Under the pieces are notes generated by a model. The model saw only the letters and a program-made list of their open reading frames with translations, was not told the DNA's origin and searched no databases. This document shows, piece after piece, positions 11,576 to 58,904 of a stretch of DNA of 64,000 nt. Source of the stretch: Clostridiales bacterium (lineage in GTDB: Bacteria > Bacillota > Clostridia > Christensenellales > UBA1242); the NCBI GenBank assembly GCA_003522085.1, contig DPGI01000005.1, positions 172,868 to 236,867 of the forward strand. Direction: 5' to 3'. The translations under genes and the position numbers were made by a program. Within the stretch, counting starts at the first letter, position 1. Every line of letters begins with the position of its first letter.

Positions 11576-11596
11576 ACAACCGAAATTGTTTGCTTT

Positions 11597-11939
11597 TTGT
11601 CAGCTAAACTATAAGCCGAGTTCTGTATTTTGTGGTCATCTATCTAGACCTTTTGTCGCCAAAAGGTTCAAGCGGCGCTTTTGAAAGACACGTAAGACGC
11701 GATAACTGTCTTTGCTTGGCCTTGCATCGGGTGGGGTTTACAGAGCAAGCCATGTTACCACAGCCCCGGTGAGCTCTTACCTCGCCTTTCCATCCTTACC
11801 CTTGCGGGCGGTTTATTTCTGTTGCACTATCCTTAAAGTCACCTTCACCAGCCGTTAACTGGCACCCTGTCTTATGATGCTCGGACTTTCCTCACTTTGC
11901 TTTTTATCAGCAAACTGCGACCACATGTTTAACTGACTT
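11597..11939 (-). ncRNA. rnpB: RNase P RNA, bacterial type A
   Basis: Minus strand carries GAGGAAAGTCCGAGC, AGGGTGCCAGTTAACGGCTGG, GGTAAGAGCTCACC, GTAAACCCCACCCG and ACAGAACTCGGCTTA. P1 pairs GTCAGTTAAAC with GTTTAGCTGAC. Confidence 0.92.
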
Positions 11940-14202: not shown

Positions 14203-14221
14203 GCACCTCGCTTTGAAGTAA

Positions 14222-14259: not shown

Positions 14260-14484
14260 ATCGTGGGGACAACCAAATTTTGAACGCGGACACACCCGCT
14301 AAACGCGGCCAACCGCTAAAATTCGGTTTTCCACCACGTGCCCCTTTCCCGCAACTTGACGCGCCCCGGGCGCTTTCGGCGTTGCATCAGGGCGCGCTAA
14401 ACTGTTTTCGCCGAGCAAAGCTCTTCCCCGAAAAAGTTTATCATCGCTTATCTTTATGGATAAATAAGATAGACAAGATGTCTA
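14260..14484 (+). repeat. GC-rich modular repeat, unit A1 (starts with 20-mer ATCGTGGGGACAACCAAATT)
   Basis: Near-identical to 26255..26480 and 26481..26705. Confidence 0.95.
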
Positions 14485-14504
14485 ATCGTGGGGACAACCA
14501 AATT
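14485..14504 (+). repeat. terminal copy of the 20-mer
   Basis: Exact ATCGTGGGGACAACCAAATT. Confidence 0.95.
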
Positions 14505-14507
14505 AAG

Positions 14508-14689
14508 GTCACCTGCGGTGACATGATGGCTGACTACGTCGGCATGATAGCACTCAAAGTGTGCATGATGGTCGCTAACGCGACATGATGGCGCACTGCG
14601 TGCGCATGATAGTCACTTATGTGACATGATAGTTGACTACGTCAACATGATGGTGTTCTTCGCACACATGATGGCACGCTGGCGCGTGC
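14508..14689 (+). repeat. array of 9 short hairpins separated by ATGATR linkers (period ~21 nt)
   Basis: Each unit is a G...C-closed 5-6 bp stem with a 3-4 nt loop. Stems differ by compensatory changes. T:G wobbles occur only on the + strand. Confidence 0.9.
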
Positions 14690-14692
14690 ATA

Positions 14693-14763
14693 GCGGTTGG
14701 ATTTAAAAAGCAGTTTGATTTTAAAAACGTAGTTGAATTTTAAAAAGCGATTAGATTGTAAAG
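14693..14763 (+). repeat. four ~18-nt A/T-rich direct repeats (GCRGTTKGATTTTAAAAA)
   Basis: GCGGTTGGATTTAAAAA, GCAGTTTGATTTTAAAAA, GTAGTTGAATTTTAAAAA, GCGATTAGATTGTAAAG. Confidence 0.7.
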
Positions 14764-14827
14764 TATGCAACATTAAATAAAAAAGCGGCGGGCAAAGGCT
14801 CGTCGCTTAGGTCATTAAATTTATTTT

Positions 14828-25667: not shown

Positions 25668-26228
25668 ATGGACAATATCATTTCAGACGAAATCAACAAC
25701 GAAGAAAAGGTGCGACTTAAACTTACACTGTTATTTTTCATGGAAAAAATGGAAATTCCACTCACCAAAAACTCTATTCTCGACATCTGCTCGCTTGAAA
25801 ATGATTGGATTAGTTACATAGACTGCGTCGCTATCATTTCAGAACTTTGCGACAGCGGCTTTATCTATAAAACCGAAAACGCTGAAAATGACGAACTTTA
25901 TTCTATCACCTATTCCGGTCGCGAATGTTTAGCTCAACTTTACACCCGCGTGCCATATGAACGCCGCGAAAAAATGACCGAATATGTAAAGCAAAACAAA
26001 CTTTCAGTTAAGGCATCGCAAGAATACACTTCAAACTATGTAAAAAACGACGACGGCTCTTATACTGTTACTCTCAGAATTTATGAGCCAATGATTCCAA
26101 CCCCTATGTTTGAAATAAAAATTAAAGCACCTTCAAGACAAAGCGCAATCGAGGCTGACAAAAAATGGAAGCGCAATGCTCCAAGTGTTTATGAATATGT
26201 TTATGAAAATTTGGTTAATACCGACTAA
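25668..26228 (+). CDS. DUF4364-like (PadR-like winged helix) protein
   Basis: 186 aa. The N-terminal LKLTLLFFMEKMEIPLTKNSILDI pattern resembles DUF4364. The stop codon overlaps the first 20-mer repeat. Confidence 0.5.
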   Translation: MDNIISDEINNEEKVRLKLTLLFFMEKMEIPLTKNSILDICSLENDWISYIDCVAIISELCDSGFIYKTENAENDELYSITYSGRECLAQLYTRVPYERREKMTEYVKQNKLSVKASQEYTSNYVKNDDGSYTVTLRIYEPMIPTPMFEIKIKAPSRQSAIEADKKWKRNAPSVYEYVYENLVNTD

Positions 26229-26247
26229 TCGTGGGGACAACCAAATT
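26228..26247 (+). repeat. solo copy of the 20-mer
   Basis: Exact ATCGTGGGGACAACCAAATT. Begins on the last base of the preceding stop codon. Confidence 0.95.
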
Positions 26248-26254
26248 TTTTTAT

Positions 26255-26480
26255 ATCGTGGGGACAACCAAATTTTTTTACGCGGACACACCCGCTAGGC
26301 GCGGGCAACCGCTAAAATTCGGTTTTCCACCACGGACCCCTTTCCCGCAACTTGACGCGCCCCGGGCGCTTTCGGCGTTGCATCAGGGCGCGCTAAACTG
26401 TTTTCGCCGAGCAAAGCTCTTCCCCGAAAAAGTTTAACATCGCTTATCTTTATGGATAAATAAGATAGACAAGAAGACTT
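26255..26480 (+). repeat. GC-rich modular repeat, unit B1
   Basis: 226 nt. Starts with the 20-mer. Confidence 0.95.
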
Positions 26481-26705
26481 ATCGTGGGGACAACCAAATT
26501 TTTTTACGCGGACACACCCGCTAGCCGCGGGCAACCGCTAAAATTCGGTTTTCCACCACGGGCCCCTTTCCCGCAACTTGACGCGCCCCGGGCGCTTTCG
26601 GCGTTGCATCAGGGCGCGCTAAACTGTTTTCGCCGGACAAAGCCCTTCCCCGAAAAAGTTTAACATCGCACTTCTTATTGATAAATTAGATAGACAAGAA
26701 GACTT
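26481..26705 (+). repeat. GC-rich modular repeat, unit B2 (tandem)
   Basis: 225 nt. Differs from B1 by a few substitutions in the GC-rich core and a more diverged AT-rich 3' tail. Confidence 0.95.
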
Positions 26706-26725
26706 ATCGTGGGGACAACCAAATT
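26706..26725 (+). repeat. terminal copy of the 20-mer
   Basis: Exact copy, followed by AAG and the hairpin array, as at 14485. Confidence 0.95.
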
Positions 26726-26728
26726 AAG

Positions 26729-26827
26729 GTCACCTGCGGTGACATGATAGCACGCTGACGCGTGCATGATAGTCGCTGCGCAACATGATGGTTGACTGCG
26801 TCGACATGATGGTGCAACAAGTTGCGC
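26729..26827 (+). repeat. array of 5 short hairpins separated by ATGATR linkers
   Basis: GTCACC-TGC-GGTGAC, GCACGC-TGAC-GCGTGC, GTCGC-TGC-GCAAC, GTTGAC-TGC-GTCGAC, GTGCAA-CAAG-TTGCGC. Confidence 0.9.
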
Positions 26828-26866
26828 ATATTGTTGAAAAGAGCAAAAATTGCTACGAAAAAAAAA

Positions 26867-26889
26867 AGATTGAAATTCAATCTTTTTTA
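26867..26889 (+). terminator. rho-independent terminator closing the DUF4364-repeat transcript
   Basis: AGATTGAA-A-TTCAATCT followed by TTTTTT. An A-run precedes it, so it could act in both directions. Confidence 0.7.
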
Positions 26890-27056
26890 TTTAATTTTTA
26901 TTTAATTTTGTATTTTATTTTTAATTTTTTATTATTTAATTATTTATTTTTATTTTATTTTAATTATTTTTCGATTTATTTCGCAATTTATTTTATTATT
27001 TAATTAAAAACCCTTTTACTGCCTTTATTTTTCGGATATTTAATTAAACAATAAAT

Positions 27057-31889: not shown

Positions 31890-31977
31890 TGGCGCAGAGG
31901 TCGGGATTCGAACCCGAGGTAGCTTTCACTACACACGCTTTCCAAGCGTGCACATTCGACCGCTCTGACACCTCTGC
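31890..31977 (-). tRNA. tRNA-Ser (anticodon GGA), CCA encoded
   Basis: Cloverleaf read by hand. Acceptor GCAGAGG/CCTCTGC. Anticodon arm CACGC-TTGGAAA-GCGTG. Long variable arm GTAG-TGAAAG-CTAC. T arm TCGGG-TTCGAAT-CCCGA. Confidence 0.9.
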
Positions 31978-34331: not shown

Positions 34332-35744
34332 TTAATTATTTTCGAGTTTATCGCACGCATGATTGTAGTAAACATATGACGCTTTATCGTCGCTTACATA
34401 AGACAAAACCTGCTTAAAACACGTTTTTGCTTTTTCATATTCGTGCTCGTTAAAATTGCGGACCCCTTCTTCAAAATTGCTTTTTAAATGAACCAACTTG
34501 TCTCGCTTTTTCTTTGGATAAATTTCAAGACTCTCAAACAGCGAAGTTGTTTCGGCATTTTCAACCGAAATTGAACCGATATATCGATAGTCAAATTGAT
34601 ATTTTGTTGGGATTTCATTTAGACTATCCTTTGAAAATATCACTTTTGTGCCCATCATTTTATTTATGTCTTCCATTTTTGATGCAAGATTGACGACATC
34701 GGAAATTATGGTCGGGCTTTTTCGTGCTTCCTCTCCGACTATGCCAAAAATAACCTCGCCTGTGTGGATTGAAATGCGCGCGTCAACGTTTGGAAACGAT
34801 GAATGCGACTTGTTTTTGACTTCAATGGCGCGGCAAATATGTGTGGCGCATTCTATTGCTTGTTCTGGGCGTGGAAAAACCGCCAAAATGCCATCACCAA
34901 GATATTTGTCGACAAATCCACCGTGCTTGCGAATAAGCGGCGAAACAACGTTTAAATATGAGTTTATAAAGTTGAAATTTTCTTCGAGCGAAAGCGTTGT
35001 CGAAACCGAACTTGAACTGACTATGTCACAAAACAAAGTCGTGGCACGCTTTTGGACTTGATTGCCGAGTTCTAGATCAGAAATTGACGTTTTGCCCAGA
35101 AATTTCAAAAACTGACGCGGAATAAATTTTTGTGCTTCAAGGTCGGTTTGTCTGGCCATATTTTCTTTTTCTTTATAATTAAAATTGATTTTTTCAAGCG
35201 AATTTTCGATGTTTTTAAACTGCTTGGACTTTCCAATTTCAAACTTGTCTTCGCGAATTACTCCGTCGCCGAGTCGTTGGGCGATTTTTTCGAGTTTTTG
35301 CACTGGACGGCAGATGTAAGAAAAAATCACGAACAGCGCTACAAAATAAACAAGCGTAAGCAGCACTCCCCACAAAAGCGTGTTGTATGTATTTTTGTTT
35401 GTGACGTTTAAAAGCACTTGCATAGTTGCCGCAGTTTGTCCCGAGAAGTTGTTTATGCCTGCTATGATAAACATTCCGACTCCATAGATTGCAGTAAGCG
35501 GCGCCGTTGCAAAAAAGATCATGCGCGAAAGCTTTTGCATTTTTAAAAATCTAAAATACAAAATCGTGCCGAATATATTGCTGACCGCAATCAAAACTAA
35601 GCCCGCAATGCCGAGTCCGTTAAAGTTGAATGAAAAACCTGTGCCGGTTGGAGTTATGCCTTCGATGACATATTTGCCAAGCACGATTGCTGGTATCATA
35701 GTGACAATATAAAGCACCAAATAGATTTTCGTTGAGAGTTTCAT
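34332..35744 (-). CDS. membrane-anchored HAMP / class III adenylate-guanylate cyclase domain protein
   Basis: Multiple TM helices. Cyclase core LFCDIVSSS...YLGDGILAVF...SDVVNLASKME. The track ORF starts at a TTG (35804); the first ATG is 35744. Confidence 0.75.
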   Translation of the reverse strand: MKLSTKIYLVLYIVTMIPAIVLGKYVIEGITPTGTGFSFNFNGLGIAGLVLIAVSNIFGTILYFRFLKMQKLSRMIFFATAPLTAIYGVGMFIIAGINNFSGQTAATMQVLLNVTNKNTYNTLLWGVLLTLVYFVALFVIFSYICRPVQKLEKIAQRLGDGVIREDKFEIGKSKQFKNIENSLEKINFNYKEKENMARQTDLEAQKFIPRQFLKFLGKTSISDLELGNQVQKRATTLFCDIVSSSSVSTTLSLEENFNFINSYLNVVSPLIRKHGGFVDKYLGDGILAVFPRPEQAIECATHICRAIEVKNKSHSSFPNVDARISIHTGEVIFGIVGEEARKSPTIISDVVNLASKMEDINKMMGTKVIFSKDSLNEIPTKYQFDYRYIGSISVENAETTSLFESLEIYPKKKRDKLVHLKSNFEEGVRNFNEHEYEKAKTCFKQVLSYVSDDKASYVYYNHACDKLENN

Positions 35745-35836
35745 GCTTTTATTTTGAGAAAAAAGAAAAAATGTATTCTTTGTGCATAGAAAAATATTTT
35801 TCAAACCAAAATATAACTGTCAAAAGGAGAATTATT

Positions 35837-36280: not shown

Positions 36281-36600
36281 CAATTTATTTTGGTCAACTT
36301 GCCAGCGAAAAGCAAATAGATCTTCCTATCTTCAAAAATAGGAAGATTTTTTATTGACAAAATTAACTCTTCTTTAAACGCGTTTACATCTTTTGGATAG
36401 TCATAAAAAAAGCATTGCGCTTCAAGCGGCCAATATTCAAAATATTTGGTGTTTTTAAGTTCGCTCCCCCGCATTTCAAGGTGAAACGATGATTTATCCA
36501 TCACTATGCAAAAATAGACGAATCTTATTTCGTCCGGCAGCGGGTCGTCTTCTAAAATGTTTTCAATCCAATAAAGGAGTTTTTCATCAAACTCGGTCAT
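36277..36600 (-). CDS. hypothetical small cytosolic protein
   Basis: 107 aa. Start overlaps the upstream stop codon (ATGA). Confidence 0.55.
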   Translation of the reverse strand: MTEFDEKLLYWIENILEDDPLPDEIRFVYFCIVMDKSSFHLEMRGSELKNTKYFEYWPLEAQCFFYDYPKDVNAFKEELILSIKNLPIFEDRKIYLLFAGKLTKINC

Positions 36601-37100
36601 AGCACGCCCTTTAATATTATTACTGCGCTTTCACAAAACAGACTTAAAATTAAAAATGTCAGTGCAAAATTAAAAAGCAAAAATTTGGCGGAAATAGTTT
36701 TAGCTGTTGCCACGACCTGCTTTGAAAGGTCAAGATCGAATTGGTCGGTTTTGTATCCTTTAAACAGCGGATAGCTTTGGGCGATTTCTTTTAAGTAATC
36801 TTCTGGCGAAAAGCGCGCGATATGTTTAAAATACAGCAAATTTTCTTGCTGCGATTTATGCGTGCGACCAAAGCGGATGTGCTTTGCTGACAGCGCGATA
36901 AACGAATATAAAACTGACACCAAAGAAAAGATAATCGAAATTGCGCTAAGTGCGTTGACAAGCGGCTTTGACGAGTCGAGATAGGTTGCAGAAAAAACAG
37001 TCAATGCAGAAGCCAGAGTGATTGAAATAGAGTGCTTTGTTTCTGCGTATTTTAACTGCTCTTCAAGGCGATCAAAAATGTATTTTAGAGTTTGTTTCAT
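36597..37100 (-). CDS. three-TM membrane protein (resembles DUF5706/Pycsar-effector-type TM module, unverified)
   Basis: 167 aa. Helix with LKYAETKHSISITL, then two TM helices, a soluble stretch, and a third TM helix. Confidence 0.5.
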   Translation of the reverse strand: MKQTLKYIFDRLEEQLKYAETKHSISITLASALTVFSATYLDSSKPLVNALSAISIIFSLVSVLYSFIALSAKHIRFGRTHKSQQENLLYFKHIARFSPEDYLKEIAQSYPLFKGYKTDQFDLDLSKQVVATAKTISAKFLLFNFALTFLILSLFCESAVIILKGVL

Positions 37101-55949: not shown

Positions 55950-58904
55950 TTATTCGTATTTGTCGCCAAATATCTGATAATACTCTTCAAGAGTTATATA
56001 AACGTTTCTTGGCTTTGCTCCGTCGGCGGCTGAAATGTAGCCCATTTCGGTCATTTGGTCGATGATTTTGCCGGCGCGTGGATAGCCGATTGAAAGACGA
56101 CGTTGAATCATTGAAGTTGACGCTTGTCCTGCATCTATACACATTTTGAGTGCTTCAGGAAGAAGTGGATCCATTCCCCCGCGTTCGTTGTCGCCACCAT
56201 TTGATGAGGTTTTTGGAGCGTTGTTGATTGCATCTTGAATGTCTTTATCAAACACTGGTTCGTTGTTGAGAGTAACATAATTTACTATGTCGGCGATTTC
56301 ACGAGTTGTTATAAAGCAACCTTGAACACGTTTTGGTGCTGCTGAATATTCTTGTGGAGCATAAAGCATATCACCATGTCCCAGCAACTTTTCGGCGCCC
56401 GGTTGTCCTAAAATTACAACTGAGTTTACATTGCTTGCAACTTTGAATGCGATGCGTGATGGGAAGTTTGCTTTGATGCCGCCTGTGACATATTCAGTTG
56501 TTGGATATTGTGTTGCCAAGATGATGTGAATACCGGCCGCTCTCGCCTTTTGTCCAAGACGAATAATTTTGTCTTCAACTTCTTTCTTGCCTTGCATGAT
56601 AAAGTCTGAAAATTCGTCGATGATGATTACGATGAAAGGCATTTTCTTTTTCTTGTAAGTCACAACGTCTGGGGTTGAGTTGTATTCATCGATGTCTCTT
56701 ACGCGCGCTTCACGAATAAGTCTGAAACGGCGCTCCATTTCGTCAACTGCCCATTGAAGCGCATTTGTCGCTTTTGTAAGATCAGAAATAACTTTTGGAA
56801 CTATAAGGTGTGGAATGCCTTCATATGGTGTAAATTCGACCTGTTTTGGGTCGATAAGCAGCAATTTGCAGTCGTCTGGCGATGATTTGTAAAGAAGTGA
56901 AATGATTATGCTGTTGAGCATTACACTCTTTCCTGAGCCAGTTGTCCCGGCGATTAAAAGGTGTGGCATTTTGTTGAGAGCACCAACCATAATTCTGCCA
57001 GTGATGTCCTTTCCTACGGCATATGTGAGTGGAGATTTTGCTGAATTGAATTCGTTTGAAATTAACACGTCTTTTAATGAAACTGTTGCGACTTTGTCGT
57101 TTGGAACTTCGATGCCGACAACGTTTCTGCCTGGAACTGGGGCTTCGATACGCACATCGCCGCCGTTTGCTTCAAGGGCAAGTGCGATGTCGCTTGAAAG
57201 GTTGAGAATCTTTTTAACGGTTACGCCGCTTGGCATTTCAAGTTCATATCTTGTAACTGCTGGGCCGATTACGACGTTTTGAACTTTTGCAGGCACGCCA
57301 AATTCTTCGAGTGTGTTTTCTAAGATTACAGTTTTTGTTTGAATGTCGTCGTCAAGGTCGCTCATGTCGGTTGAACGAGTTGTAACAAGGTCGATTGGAG
57401 GTTTTGTATAAGAATAAGGCTTGATAACCTCTGGCTTTTCTTCCTCTTCGCTGTTTGAGATGTTGTCAAAATCAACAAATTTTTTGTGGTCTGGAACGGC
57501 AAATTCGCCATCTCTAACAAGCCCACGATCGCTTTGGTTTGCTGATGTTGTGCGATCAGAGCGGTCAAAATTGTTGCGGTCATTGTCGCGCGAAAGTGCG
57601 TCACGGTCTGAGTGTGATAAATCGCGATTATCTCTGTCAAATGTCGAACGATCCGCCCCGCTTATGTCACGGTCGCTGTGACGATCAAAAGAACCACGGT
57701 CACGAGAAAAATCGCGCTCCATGCGGTCGCTCACGCGGTCTGACGAATGGTCTAACGCGCGGTCTGAATGATCAAAACTATTGTTGCGATCACGGTCGAA
57801 ATTGTTGCGATCACGGTCGAAGTCGCGGTCGCTGCCATTTTGTTTTTCTTGCGCTTTTTCAATATCTTCAGCTGATACTGAATCTGAGTGAGTGAAATTG
57901 CTCTCTTCCATAACTTCACGAATGATGTTGTCGGCTTCTGAAACAAGTTGTTCTGGCTGAGCGTCAGTGACAGCGTTTTGGCGCGAAGAATCAGAAATTA
58001 TAGGTGGAATTTCTTCTTTTTTAAGCGAATTTATGTTTCTGTCGATTTCGCTTTTTGATGGATTTGAAAGCCCATTTCTTGCATATGAGCGCGCTTCAGG
58101 TGAAAAGAATTTGCTGAAATCCGCTTGTGGTGGCGTAAGCAAATATGACTTTAATTCGTCGCCTTTAAGCGTTTTTGGATCGACTCTTTTAGGCTTTTCT
58201 TCTTCTTTTTGTGTGGTTGAAATTGGTTCAATCACTCCCCTGCGAGTAAGTCCGAGTTTTTGTCTGACTTCTTCTTCGCGTGAAAGTTTTTTCTCTATAT
58301 TGCCGCTCATAACGACGTTGACTTCTTCTTTTTGTTGAGTTTTTTCGTCGTTTTTAACTTCTTTGATTGAAAGTTTTACAGGCTCTTCGGCTGACGCTTT
58401 CTTTTTCATTGCGATGATTGCGTCGATGTAAAGAGCAAGTGATATTGCAAACAAAACTGAGAAAATAACAAAAGCCCAAACAAAATTGGTCAGATACAAA
58501 ATGCAGGTTGTAAAAAATCCGAAAACAATTCCGCCTGCTGTGTGCTTGCGAGTGTAATTTGATGCGAGATAATCGCCAAATGAACCCGATTTATTGCCCA
58601 CTATTGCAAGTTGAATGATGCAGACTAAAAAGAAAATTGTCAAATACAAAAATATCGCATATTTTTTGGACATTTTATATTTTTTGTTATTTAAAAGGGC
58701 TACACCGCCAAGCAGCATTGCCACAAACATAGGATATGCAAAATATCCAAATGCGCCAAGCAAAAAATTTTGCATAAAGCCAACCAAATTTGTCAGCAAA
58801 AAGAAAAATGCGAGGCATGAGAGTGCAATCATTGTAATTCCCACTATCTTTTTCGCATTTGAACTAACTTTTTTCTTATTTTTTCCTATCTTATATTCTG
58901 CCAT
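55950..58904 (-). CDS. ftsK: DNA translocase FtsK/SpoIIIE
   Basis: N-terminal TM helices, Asp/Arg-rich linker, motor domain GTTGSGKS, and a gamma winged helix at the C-terminus. Confidence 0.93.
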   Translation of the reverse strand: MAEYKIGKNKKKVSSNAKKIVGITMIALSCLAFFFLLTNLVGFMQNFLLGAFGYFAYPMFVAMLLGGVALLNNKKYKMSKKYAIFLYLTIFFLVCIIQLAIVGNKSGSFGDYLASNYTRKHTAGGIVFGFFTTCILYLTNFVWAFVIFSVLFAISLALYIDAIIAMKKKASAEEPVKLSIKEVKNDEKTQQKEEVNVVMSGNIEKKLSREEEVRQKLGLTRRGVIEPISTTQKEEEKPKRVDPKTLKGDELKSYLLTPPQADFSKFFSPEARSYARNGLSNPSKSEIDRNINSLKKEEIPPIISDSSRQNAVTDAQPEQLVSEADNIIREVMEESNFTHSDSVSAEDIEKAQEKQNGSDRDFDRDRNNFDRDRNNSFDHSDRALDHSSDRVSDRMERDFSRDRGSFDRHSDRDISGADRSTFDRDNRDLSHSDRDALSRDNDRNNFDRSDRTTSANQSDRGLVRDGEFAVPDHKKFVDFDNISNSEEEEKPEVIKPYSYTKPPIDLVTTRSTDMSDLDDDIQTKTVILENTLEEFGVPAKVQNVVIGPAVTRYELEMPSGVTVKKILNLSSDIALALEANGGDVRIEAPVPGRNVVGIEVPNDKVATVSLKDVLISNEFNSAKSPLTYAVGKDITGRIMVGALNKMPHLLIAGTTGSGKSVMLNSIIISLLYKSSPDDCKLLLIDPKQVEFTPYEGIPHLIVPKVISDLTKATNALQWAVDEMERRFRLIREARVRDIDEYNSTPDVVTYKKKKMPFIVIIIDEFSDFIMQGKKEVEDKIIRLGQKARAAGIHIILATQYPTTEYVTGGIKANFPSRIAFKVASNVNSVVILGQPGAEKLLGHGDMLYAPQEYSAAPKRVQGCFITTREIADIVNYVTLNNEPVFDKDIQDAINNAPKTSSNGGDNERGGMDPLLPEALKMCIDAGQASTSMIQRRLSIGYPRAGKIIDQMTEMGYISAADGAKPRNVYITLEEYYQIFGDKYE

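Follow-up and report, generated by a model that had tools for sequence, protein, structure and literature searches.

A putative composite intergenic repeat element with strain-variable units and covarying hairpin arrays in an uncultured human-gut Clostridia species

Introduction

The BOX elements of Streptococcus pneumoniae are composite repeats of the form boxA-boxB(n)-boxC that occur at more than 100 loci, and the palindromic units of the REP/BIME repeats of enterobacteria are summarised in the same work (PMC3049150). The STAR element of Staphylococcus aureus carries a 14-bp signature, T(G/A/T)TGTTG(G/T)GGCCC(C/A), with spacers of at least 40 bp (PMC3532100). Here we describe an intergenic element that is present at two loci in a 64,000-nucleotide stretch of contig DPGI01000005.1 (GenBank assembly GCA_003522085.1, Clostridiales bacterium; positions 172,868 to 236,867 of the forward strand), which was analysed as a whole and is called the window below. 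Locus 2 had been singled out in an earlier sequence-only reading as a pair of tandem GC-rich units framed by a 20-nt repeat. On balance we consider it probable that the element is a lineage-restricted, non-coding composite intergenic repeat, which is built from three modules (A, B and C), has grown and shrunk as its own repeats recombined, and exerts its effect through stem-loops.

Two further kinds of hairpin-bearing sequence are relevant to the comparison. REP/BIME units are imperfect palindromes of ~35 nt that alternate in orientation and are linked to RAYT transposases. The multivalent decoy RNAs CsrB and RsmZ are series of hairpins with differing stems and a repeated short motif (GGA).

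Repeat units at two intergenic loci

The 20-mer ATCGTGGGGACAACCAAATT (module A) has six exact matches in the window, all on the + strand, at positions 14260, 14485, 26228, 26255, 26481 and 26706, and a match was found in none of 100 dinucleotide shuffles (0 expected). At locus 2, the first 20-mer (26228..26247, +) starts on the last base of the stop codon of a DUF4364 gene and lies inside a perfect 27-nt tandem duplication, which Tandem Repeats Finder placed at 26228-26280. It is followed by two copies of module B, namely unit A (26255..26480, 226 nt), which begins with the 20-mer at 26255-26274, and unit B (26481..26705, 225 nt), which is 95% identical to unit A. A solo 20-mer (26706..26725, +) bridges the last unit and a hairpin array. 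Tandem Repeats Finder reported 26254-26725 as a repeat with a period of 226, 2.1 copies and 95% matches. At locus 1, a single unit of 225 nt (14260..14484) is located directly upstream of a divergent sigK-like sigma factor gene (- strand, ATG at 14205), and a solo 20-mer (14485..14504, +) again precedes a hairpin array. The units themselves are listed without an assigned strand.

The three units share pairwise identities of 95-96%. The GC content of the unit core is 0.57, whereas the window as a whole has 0.39 and the adjoining AT-rich stretch 0.10. Positions 26444-26480 of unit A form an AT-rich tail after the core, in which the motif TTATNGATAAAT..AGACAAGA is invariant. The framing 20-mers, the 226- and 225-nt units and the start on the last base of the stop codon had all been proposed in the sequence-only reading and agree with the exact positions and the Tandem Repeats Finder result. 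The differences that it listed between copies (TAAAC/TAGGC/TAGCC and GAGC-AAA-GCTC versus GGAC-AAA-GCCC) were likewise all seen when the window units were aligned.

Hairpin arrays

Downstream of the last 20-mer, each locus continues with AAG and then with an array of ~21-nt repeats that form short GC-rich hairpins (module C), a part of the element that had gone unmentioned earlier. The locus 2 array (26729..26827) consists of five GC-rich hairpins at 26729-26743, 26750-26765, 26772-26784, 26791-26805 and 26812-26827, and the locus 1 array (14508..14689) of nine, with ATGAT(R) spacers and unassigned strand in both cases. The same hairpin, H1 (GTCACCTGCGGTGAC), opens the array at each locus. Individual hairpins are 13-16 nt long and are separated by the spacer CATGAT(R). 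Their stems vary (GTCAC, GCTGAC, GCACAC, GTCGC, GCACGC, GCGCAC, GCGCAAC and others) while pairing is retained.

Covariation was examined in 19 distinct 21-nt units, with 500 shuffles and slid registers as controls. Standard pairs occupied 93% of the hairpin cells, compared with 66.5 ± 2.8% in the shuffles, none of which (0/500) reached 93%, and with 14-44% in the slid controls. Furthermore, 34 cells were changed on both sides, compared with 10.5 in the shuffles. These results strongly support pairing in the array hairpins. The remaining mismatches are strand-neutral, being G·U in six cases on the + strand and in four cases on the - strand.

The locus 2 array is followed by a tail and a bidirectional A-run/hairpin/T-run terminator (26828..26889, with the terminator at ~26858-26889), which is shared with a convergent RNase H gene. 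The terminator that the sequence-only reading had placed at the end of the element is thus visible, and the terminator scan does not call it because its stem is too AT-rich. Between this terminator and the stop codon of the RNase H gene lie 167 nt (26890-27056) of 10% GC with TTTTTATTTAA-type tandem repeats, which are present in all examined strains of the species and not in related species. The locus 1 tail (14692..14812, strand unassigned) starts with an 18-19-nt tandem repeat, AGCAGTTGGATTTAAAA, of which ~3.9 copies (14692-14762) separate the array from the ftsY terminator, and ends with the ftsY-ending hairpin (14783-14812). As read from the sequence, this hairpin has two G·U pairs on the + strand and two A·C mismatches on the - strand, which is the ftsY sense, and its T-run is on the - side.

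Insertion sites and strain variation

Locus 2 is flanked by the DUF4364 gene (+) and the convergent RNase H gene (-), and locus 1 by ftsY and the gene for the sigK-like sporulation sigma factor, both on the - strand. In L001 and L005, whose DUF4364 proteins are 84% and 60% identical to that of the window, and in one lineage with 88% identity (L020-L023), the two genes flanking locus 2 are only 10-35 nt apart. The element is also missing from the 125-nt gap found in a second 88% lineage (L024), and a 79% relative (L003) has unrelated genes inserted at the site and no 20-mer. Only the terminator is retained at the empty locus 2 sites of related species. At locus 1, the flanking genes of species with 83-84% identical sigma factors overlap or are ~130 nt apart, and are element-free. 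Both loci are therefore insertions, since the sites are empty in species whose flanking proteins are 60-88% identical. In the closest relatives (93% identity), both sites carry a short form made up of TTCGTGGGG(A/G)CAACCAAATT, a T-run, ACGC(G/T)GACAC and one short hairpin; several contigs of these relatives end at the short form.

Variation within the species was examined among contigs encoding a 100% identical DUF4364 protein. At locus 2, zero units were found in L008, L010, L014, L015 and L045 (the L008 type represents 12 further places), one unit in L009, L011, L012 and L040, and two units in L013, which matches the window. Clean zero-unit alleles have exactly one 20-mer, then AAG and the array. 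At locus 1, the window and L007 each have one unit, whereas L039 has none. The number of hairpins per array ranges from 5 to at least 13 among strains with identical DUF4364, and the longer arrays show higher-order periods of ~73-94 nt. The sequence-only reading had treated the element as a conserved 3' extension of the DUF4364 gene; this view is contradicted by the empty sites of related species and by the many identical-DUF4364 strains that have no unit. Because the unit is missing from many strains, the element is dispensable.

Alleles with zero, one and two units at a single locus, clean zero-unit alleles that keep one 20-mer, the 20-mers that always bound units, and the occurrence of the unit at two or three sites would all be expected if the 20-mer were the core of a site-specific recombination site and the 225-bp unit an integrating and excising cassette, which leaves 20-mer/unit/20-mer structures and tandem arrays behind. 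However, simple deletion or duplication between direct repeats gives the same pattern, and other periods in the region (27, 21 and ~73 nt) are duplicated as well. In addition, no integrase or recombinase was found in the 64 kb, the unit of the third context described below lacks the second 20-mer and has a first 20-mer that is divergent, and a 225-bp DNA circle is an unusually small recombination substrate. We regard such a cassette as very unlikely. The most economical mechanism for the polymorphism would be deletion and duplication between the element's own direct repeats.

A third context (L046) was found through a spurious open reading frame (ORF) of the element, when the minus-frame ORF of the unit was compared with 1.8 billion representative proteins. 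In L046, a single unit is flanked by genes of 685 aa and 177 aa, beside a penicillin-binding protein gene. Its core is ~95% identical to the window units (~8 differences over 165 core positions, counted by eye), and blastn gave 90% over 218 nt. The 5' end of the unit reads TTAGCGGGGACAACCAAATT, the second 20-mer is not present, and once L046 is included the constant part of the 20-mer is only GGGGACAACCAAATT. Two hairpins follow the unit with their ATGATA spacer on the opposite strand, that is, inverted relative to the unit. Since L046 has the unit together with two inverted hairpins, unit and hairpins are separable modules.

The only match of a genome scan with the 20-mer was the ortholog of locus 1, from a bin that bears the label Eggerthellaceae, and a metagenome scan gave five true matches, all at the two known loci. 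By these scans, the element is found in essentially one uncultured human-gut Clostridia species, in which its copy number is strain-variable. In the sequence covered by the count, the window and one 243-kb contig, two loci were found, and L046 adds one further context. Five other metagenome matches, with G at the degenerate position, were judged to be chance. L007 (CAVCJG010000004.1), a species-representative genome titled 'Eggerthellaceae bacterium', carries the orthologous sigK/ftsY locus; this locus is clearly that of the present sporulating Clostridia lineage, and the L007 bin is therefore mislabelled or contaminated. Several metagenome contigs (L017, L018, L019, L015, L038 and L043) end inside the element or at its start. 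The element is an assembly breakpoint, and copy numbers from short reads may therefore be underestimates.

Coding capacity and database searches

Units A and B have a + strand frame that starts from a GTG in the 20-mer and stays open up to the point where the GC-rich core ends, and in this frame one hypervariable site is the third base of a Gly codon, as would be expected if each unit encoded a small protein of 59-68 aa. However, the same frame is closed at once by a TGA in locus 1, is interrupted by a TAG in both L009 and L040 and is shifted in L046, and it has no Shine-Dalgarno sequence. Searches of 5.8 billion and 1.8 billion proteins with the unit frames gave no homologues other than spurious ORFs of the element itself. 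As judged from these broken frames, the small-protein model is refuted, with hardly any probability left to it, and the earlier treatment of the unit as non-coding holds.

In a search of the whole window against Rfam 15, only RNase P RNA and one tRNA reached the gathering score, with no match at the element. When both loci were searched at E<=10 with lax filters, only chance-level snoRNA and sRNA matches were obtained. The sequence-only reading had recognised no named riboswitch or large non-coding RNA in the element and had asked for an Rfam check; the search bears that out. No matching sequence occurs in the first 200 of the 408 supplementary files of a survey of structured RNAs in the human microbiome (PMC8040213), and no mention of DUF4364 was found in the literature.

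Phage and plasmid collections gave no match in distant blastn searches. Of three scans of viral contigs, two were empty and one gave 13 chance matches in GC-rich phage genes. A TARA scaffold with a 171/330-nt satellite and a weak similarity at the protein level (P0238/L047; E of 8e-4) was judged to be a chance match after inspection of its DNA. Pfam scans of essentially all ORFs of at least 140 aa in the 64 kb showed a housekeeping core genome, with polA, sigK, ftsY, smc, rnc, plsX, pta/ack, metG, mutS/L, recA, ftsK and pnp, and detected no transposase, integrase, recombinase or reverse transcriptase among these ORFs.

Folding and strand of the units

Nine unit copies were compared, that is, eight distinct sequences from within the species and the L046 unit; coordinates refer to unit A. 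A three-hairpin architecture was predicted alike on either strand. In helix P1 (26257-26269 with 26321-26334), the 20-mer would pair with AAAATTCGGTTTTCCACCACG and enclose a GC-rich apical part, with small hairpins inside P1 at 26282-26295 and 26301-26312. Helix P2 (26338-26388) is predicted to consist of GCAAC/GTTGC around a local hairpin, GCGCC-CCG-GGCGC, and helix P3 (26390-26443) of a long stem, UAAACUGUUUUCG/CGAAAAAGUUUA, capped by GGGC-AAA-GCCC. Two compensatory pairs were found, a change from G-C to A-U in the local P2 hairpin of L046 and a G-C/A-U exchange in the P3 cap. Among the core columns, 13 of 53 unpaired ones are variable (25%), compared with 14 of 134 paired ones (10%). These observations lend weak support to the three predicted long hairpins of the unit.

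Both strands fold better than shuffled sequence, as the claim that the unit folds would predict; the values are -96.7 kcal/mol (z -3.76) for the - strand and -79.2 kcal/mol (z -2.85) for the + strand. A consensus fold has 67 pairs and -79.7 kcal/mol on the - strand and 57 pairs and -62.7 kcal/mol on the + strand. Five single-sided changes fall in the helices that the two strands have in common. Each of them leaves C·A or A·C on the + strand, which corresponds to G·U on the - strand, and none shows the opposite pattern. This 5:0 asymmetry corresponds to p ~0.03 in a one-sided sign test, and becomes 3:0 when the divergent 5' end of L046 is left out. Going by folding and substitutions, the plus-strand reading appears less supported than the minus-strand reading.

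Individual helices of the sequence-only reading fared unevenly. The change in the P3 cap, which had been called partly compensatory, indeed lies in a stem, and with more strains the exchange of GAGC/GCTC for GGGC/GCCC proved to be truly compensatory. The other three proposals are contradicted by variants. A pseudoknot between GCGCGCCC and GGGCGCGC conflicts with the G to A change of L046, which is compensated within the local hairpin GCGCC/GGCGC, and with a change on the 3' strand of L011, which is uncompensated. The loop described as GNRA-type GCAA has G, C, T or A as its first base across copies. A closing helix of TCGTGGGGA with TCCCCGA has uncompensated breaks in L012 and L007, and the 20-mer pairs better with AAAATTCGGTTTTCCACCACG just downstream.

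These contradicted helices belonged to a model in which the element is transcribed on the + strand as a structured 3' extension of ~640 nt of the DUF4364 mRNA, possibly cut at the 20-mers into RNAs of ~225 nt. Several features fit such an extension: the locus 2 element lies between a stop codon and a terminator, so that read-through from DUF4364 would transcribe it, the + strand of the L046 unit is co-directional with both flanking genes, and sigma-70-like matches are present in the AT-rich tail. However, these promoter-like matches are not clearly above the AT-rich background, there is no + strand gene upstream of locus 1, and the element is missing in relatives and in many strains. Moreover, helix variants disrupt pairing on the + strand, and the assumption of plus-strand transcription is at odds with single-sided helix changes that are G·U only on the - strand. 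We consider the extension model unlikely.

The same asymmetry is one argument for another possibility, namely that the modules are true RNA genes, the unit specifying a three-hairpin small RNA of ~190 nt from the - strand and the array a separate RNA. In the array RNA, hairpins of unlike sequence would alternate with many copies of a short single-stranded motif. It would either sequester a protein, in the manner of the sponges CsrB/RsmZ, or be a precursor that is cut into small hairpin RNAs. The folding energy, z-score and consensus pair count are all better on the - strand, the five single-sided changes (five G·U on the - strand, none on the + strand) come with the two compensatory pairs, and the diverse stems and constant spacers of the array are as in multivalent decoy RNAs. 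The reverse complement of H1 and the 20-mer, in which the 20-mer forms a U-rich tract, was flagged as terminator-like on the - strand by a scan at both loci, and the U-rich tract is kept in the variant junctions of L007 and L008. In other strains, a good TTGCAA-17-TCTAAT match on the - strand lies upstream of the array (read by eye). On the other hand, the unit is missing from many strains and from all related species and is hence dispensable, and no convincing promoter of the unit was found on either strand, as the scan of both strands gave no assignment that stood out from the AT-rich background. The asymmetry is small, the hairpin mismatches are strand-neutral, the L046 hairpins are inverted relative to the unit, and the ftsY-ending hairpin pairs better on the + strand as read from the sequence. 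Dedicated RNA genes are thus possible, with a probability well below that of a composite repeat, and both the recombination cassette and the processed 3'-untranslated region are less likely than they are. Somewhat less probable than RNA genes as such is the fuller form of this proposal, in which a previously undescribed - strand RNA of ~190 nt and an array RNA of a second new type, displaying (C/U)AUCAUG (CAUGAU(A/G) on the + strand) between covarying hairpins and either binding a protein as a sponge or yielding small hairpin RNAs, would make up a rapidly evolving RNA locus beside sigK.

Nature of the element and comparison with known repeat families

We favour a composite intergenic repeat because ordered modules with variable copy number, a narrow distribution, no coding capacity and selected hairpins are combined in one element. 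Under this reading, the 20-mer is module A, a GC-rich sequence of ~205 nt that is present in 0-2 tandem copies and would fold into three long hairpins is module B, and module C is an array of 2 to at least 13 GC-rich hairpins of 13-16 nt with CATGAT(R) spacers. The ancestor of the species and its closest relatives would already have had the element at two intergenic sites, 12 kb apart. The element would then have grown and shrunk as its own direct repeats (periods of 20, 27, 225, ~21 and ~73-94 nt) recombined or slipped during replication, with selection maintaining the hairpins. Its most likely effect would be exerted by stable stem-loops in the transcripts or in the single-stranded DNA of gene ends, in a REP/BIME-like role of 3'-end protection, termination or insulation, possibly with an outward-facing promoter in the AT-rich tail.

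Several observations weigh against a composite repeat. Classical interspersed repeats have far more sites than the two loci and one further context known here, and neither terminal inverted repeats and a target-site duplication (from the comparison of filled and empty sites) nor a mobilising enzyme (in the 64 kb) was found. The GC-rich core is ~95% conserved between L046 and the window, and the strand asymmetry of the G·U pairs is also easier to reconcile with a dedicated RNA gene than with passive repeat DNA.

Like BOX, the element is modular, non-coding and highly base-paired, has strain-variable tandem internal modules, is limited to a species and its closest relatives and, presumably in the case of the element, is co-transcribed with neighbouring genes. 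The order 20-mer, unit (0-2), 20-mer and array (5 to at least 13 hairpins) recurs at both loci and across strains with no conserved frame, as is characteristic of BOX/BIME/NIME-type repeats. It differs from BOX in having no sequence similarity to it, no terminal inverted repeats and no matching insertion sequence (IS) element, in being known at only 2-3 loci, and in that its modules are GC-rich in an AT-rich genome.

REP/BIME repeats share with the element short GC-rich extragenic hairpin arrays at gene ends, compensatory stem changes and plausible roles in mRNA 3'-end protection, attenuation and termination. The hairpins of the element, however, are only 13-16 nt long, are arranged head to tail with the constant spacer CATGAT(R) and are very low in copy number. 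Each array has a single hairpin orientation, and no Y1 (RAYT-type) transposase domain was detected in the window ORFs scanned.

STAR and the element both consist of GC-rich direct repeats in intergenic regions of low-GC Firmicutes, with a short signature and recurring spacers, expansion and contraction among strains, and locations that differ between species. The STAR signature was not found in the element, whose repeat is ATCGTGGGGACAACCAAATT; the spacing is 205 nt rather than ~40-60 nt, and a separate hairpin array is added. CsrB/RsmZ resemble module C in that hairpins with differing stems present a repeated short motif. Module C differs in having no GGA motif and in carrying its constant motif between the hairpins and not in their loops, and no partner protein was identified.

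Other known types were considered and rejected. The ends of the element (TCGTGGGG... and the terminator-proximal tail) have no inverted repeat, and filled and empty sites show no target duplication, unlike a miniature inverted-repeat transposable element (MITE). A type III toxin-antitoxin locus of the ToxI kind has identical tandem repeats of ~36 nt immediately before an endoribonuclease toxin gene; here the repeats are ~21 nt, their stems differ and a terminator follows. A guide RNA of the IS200/IS605 kind (IscB/TnpB omega RNA, HEARO) is not indicated, as the 64 kb contain no iscB/tnpB gene and no HEARO/IS605-orfB Rfam match. A CRISPR array has constant repeats of 24-48 nt, unique spacers of similar length and cas genes, whereas the 205-nt 'spacers' of the units are 95% identical and no cas genes are present in the window; the 21-nt array has recurring hairpin types and a constant part of 7-8 nt. 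Since the defining sequence or architecture of each named family is lacking, the element would represent a new composite repeat outside these families.

If the element is only a composite repeat, its value would be practical, as a highly polymorphic marker of strains in an uncultured Clostridia species that is common in the human gut. It would also be a sequence that breaks assemblies, a warning that GC-rich units in tandem should not be taken for conserved regulatory RNAs, and a clear case of paralogous repeats whose hairpins are maintained by selection. If the modules were RNA genes, a structured RNA and a hairpin-array RNA, both of them new, would lie beside sigK.

Other features of the window

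The - strand carries nearly all genes of the window. Among them, a gene whose 490-aa product contains a nucleotide cyclase domain (Guanylate_cyc; 34332-35804, -) is located ~800 nt from a gene for a 167-aa PycTM (Pycsar effector) protein (36597-37100, -), and the two may form a Pycsar-type anti-phage pair. The class A RNase P RNA (284 bits) and the tRNA gene were mapped to 11596-11936 and 31893-31977, respectively, both on the - strand. A perfect 21-nt tandem duplication of ATTGTTGCGATCACGGTCGAA (2 copies, 57780-57821) was found in the FtsK/SpoIIIE gene, where it would give an in-frame repeat of seven residues.

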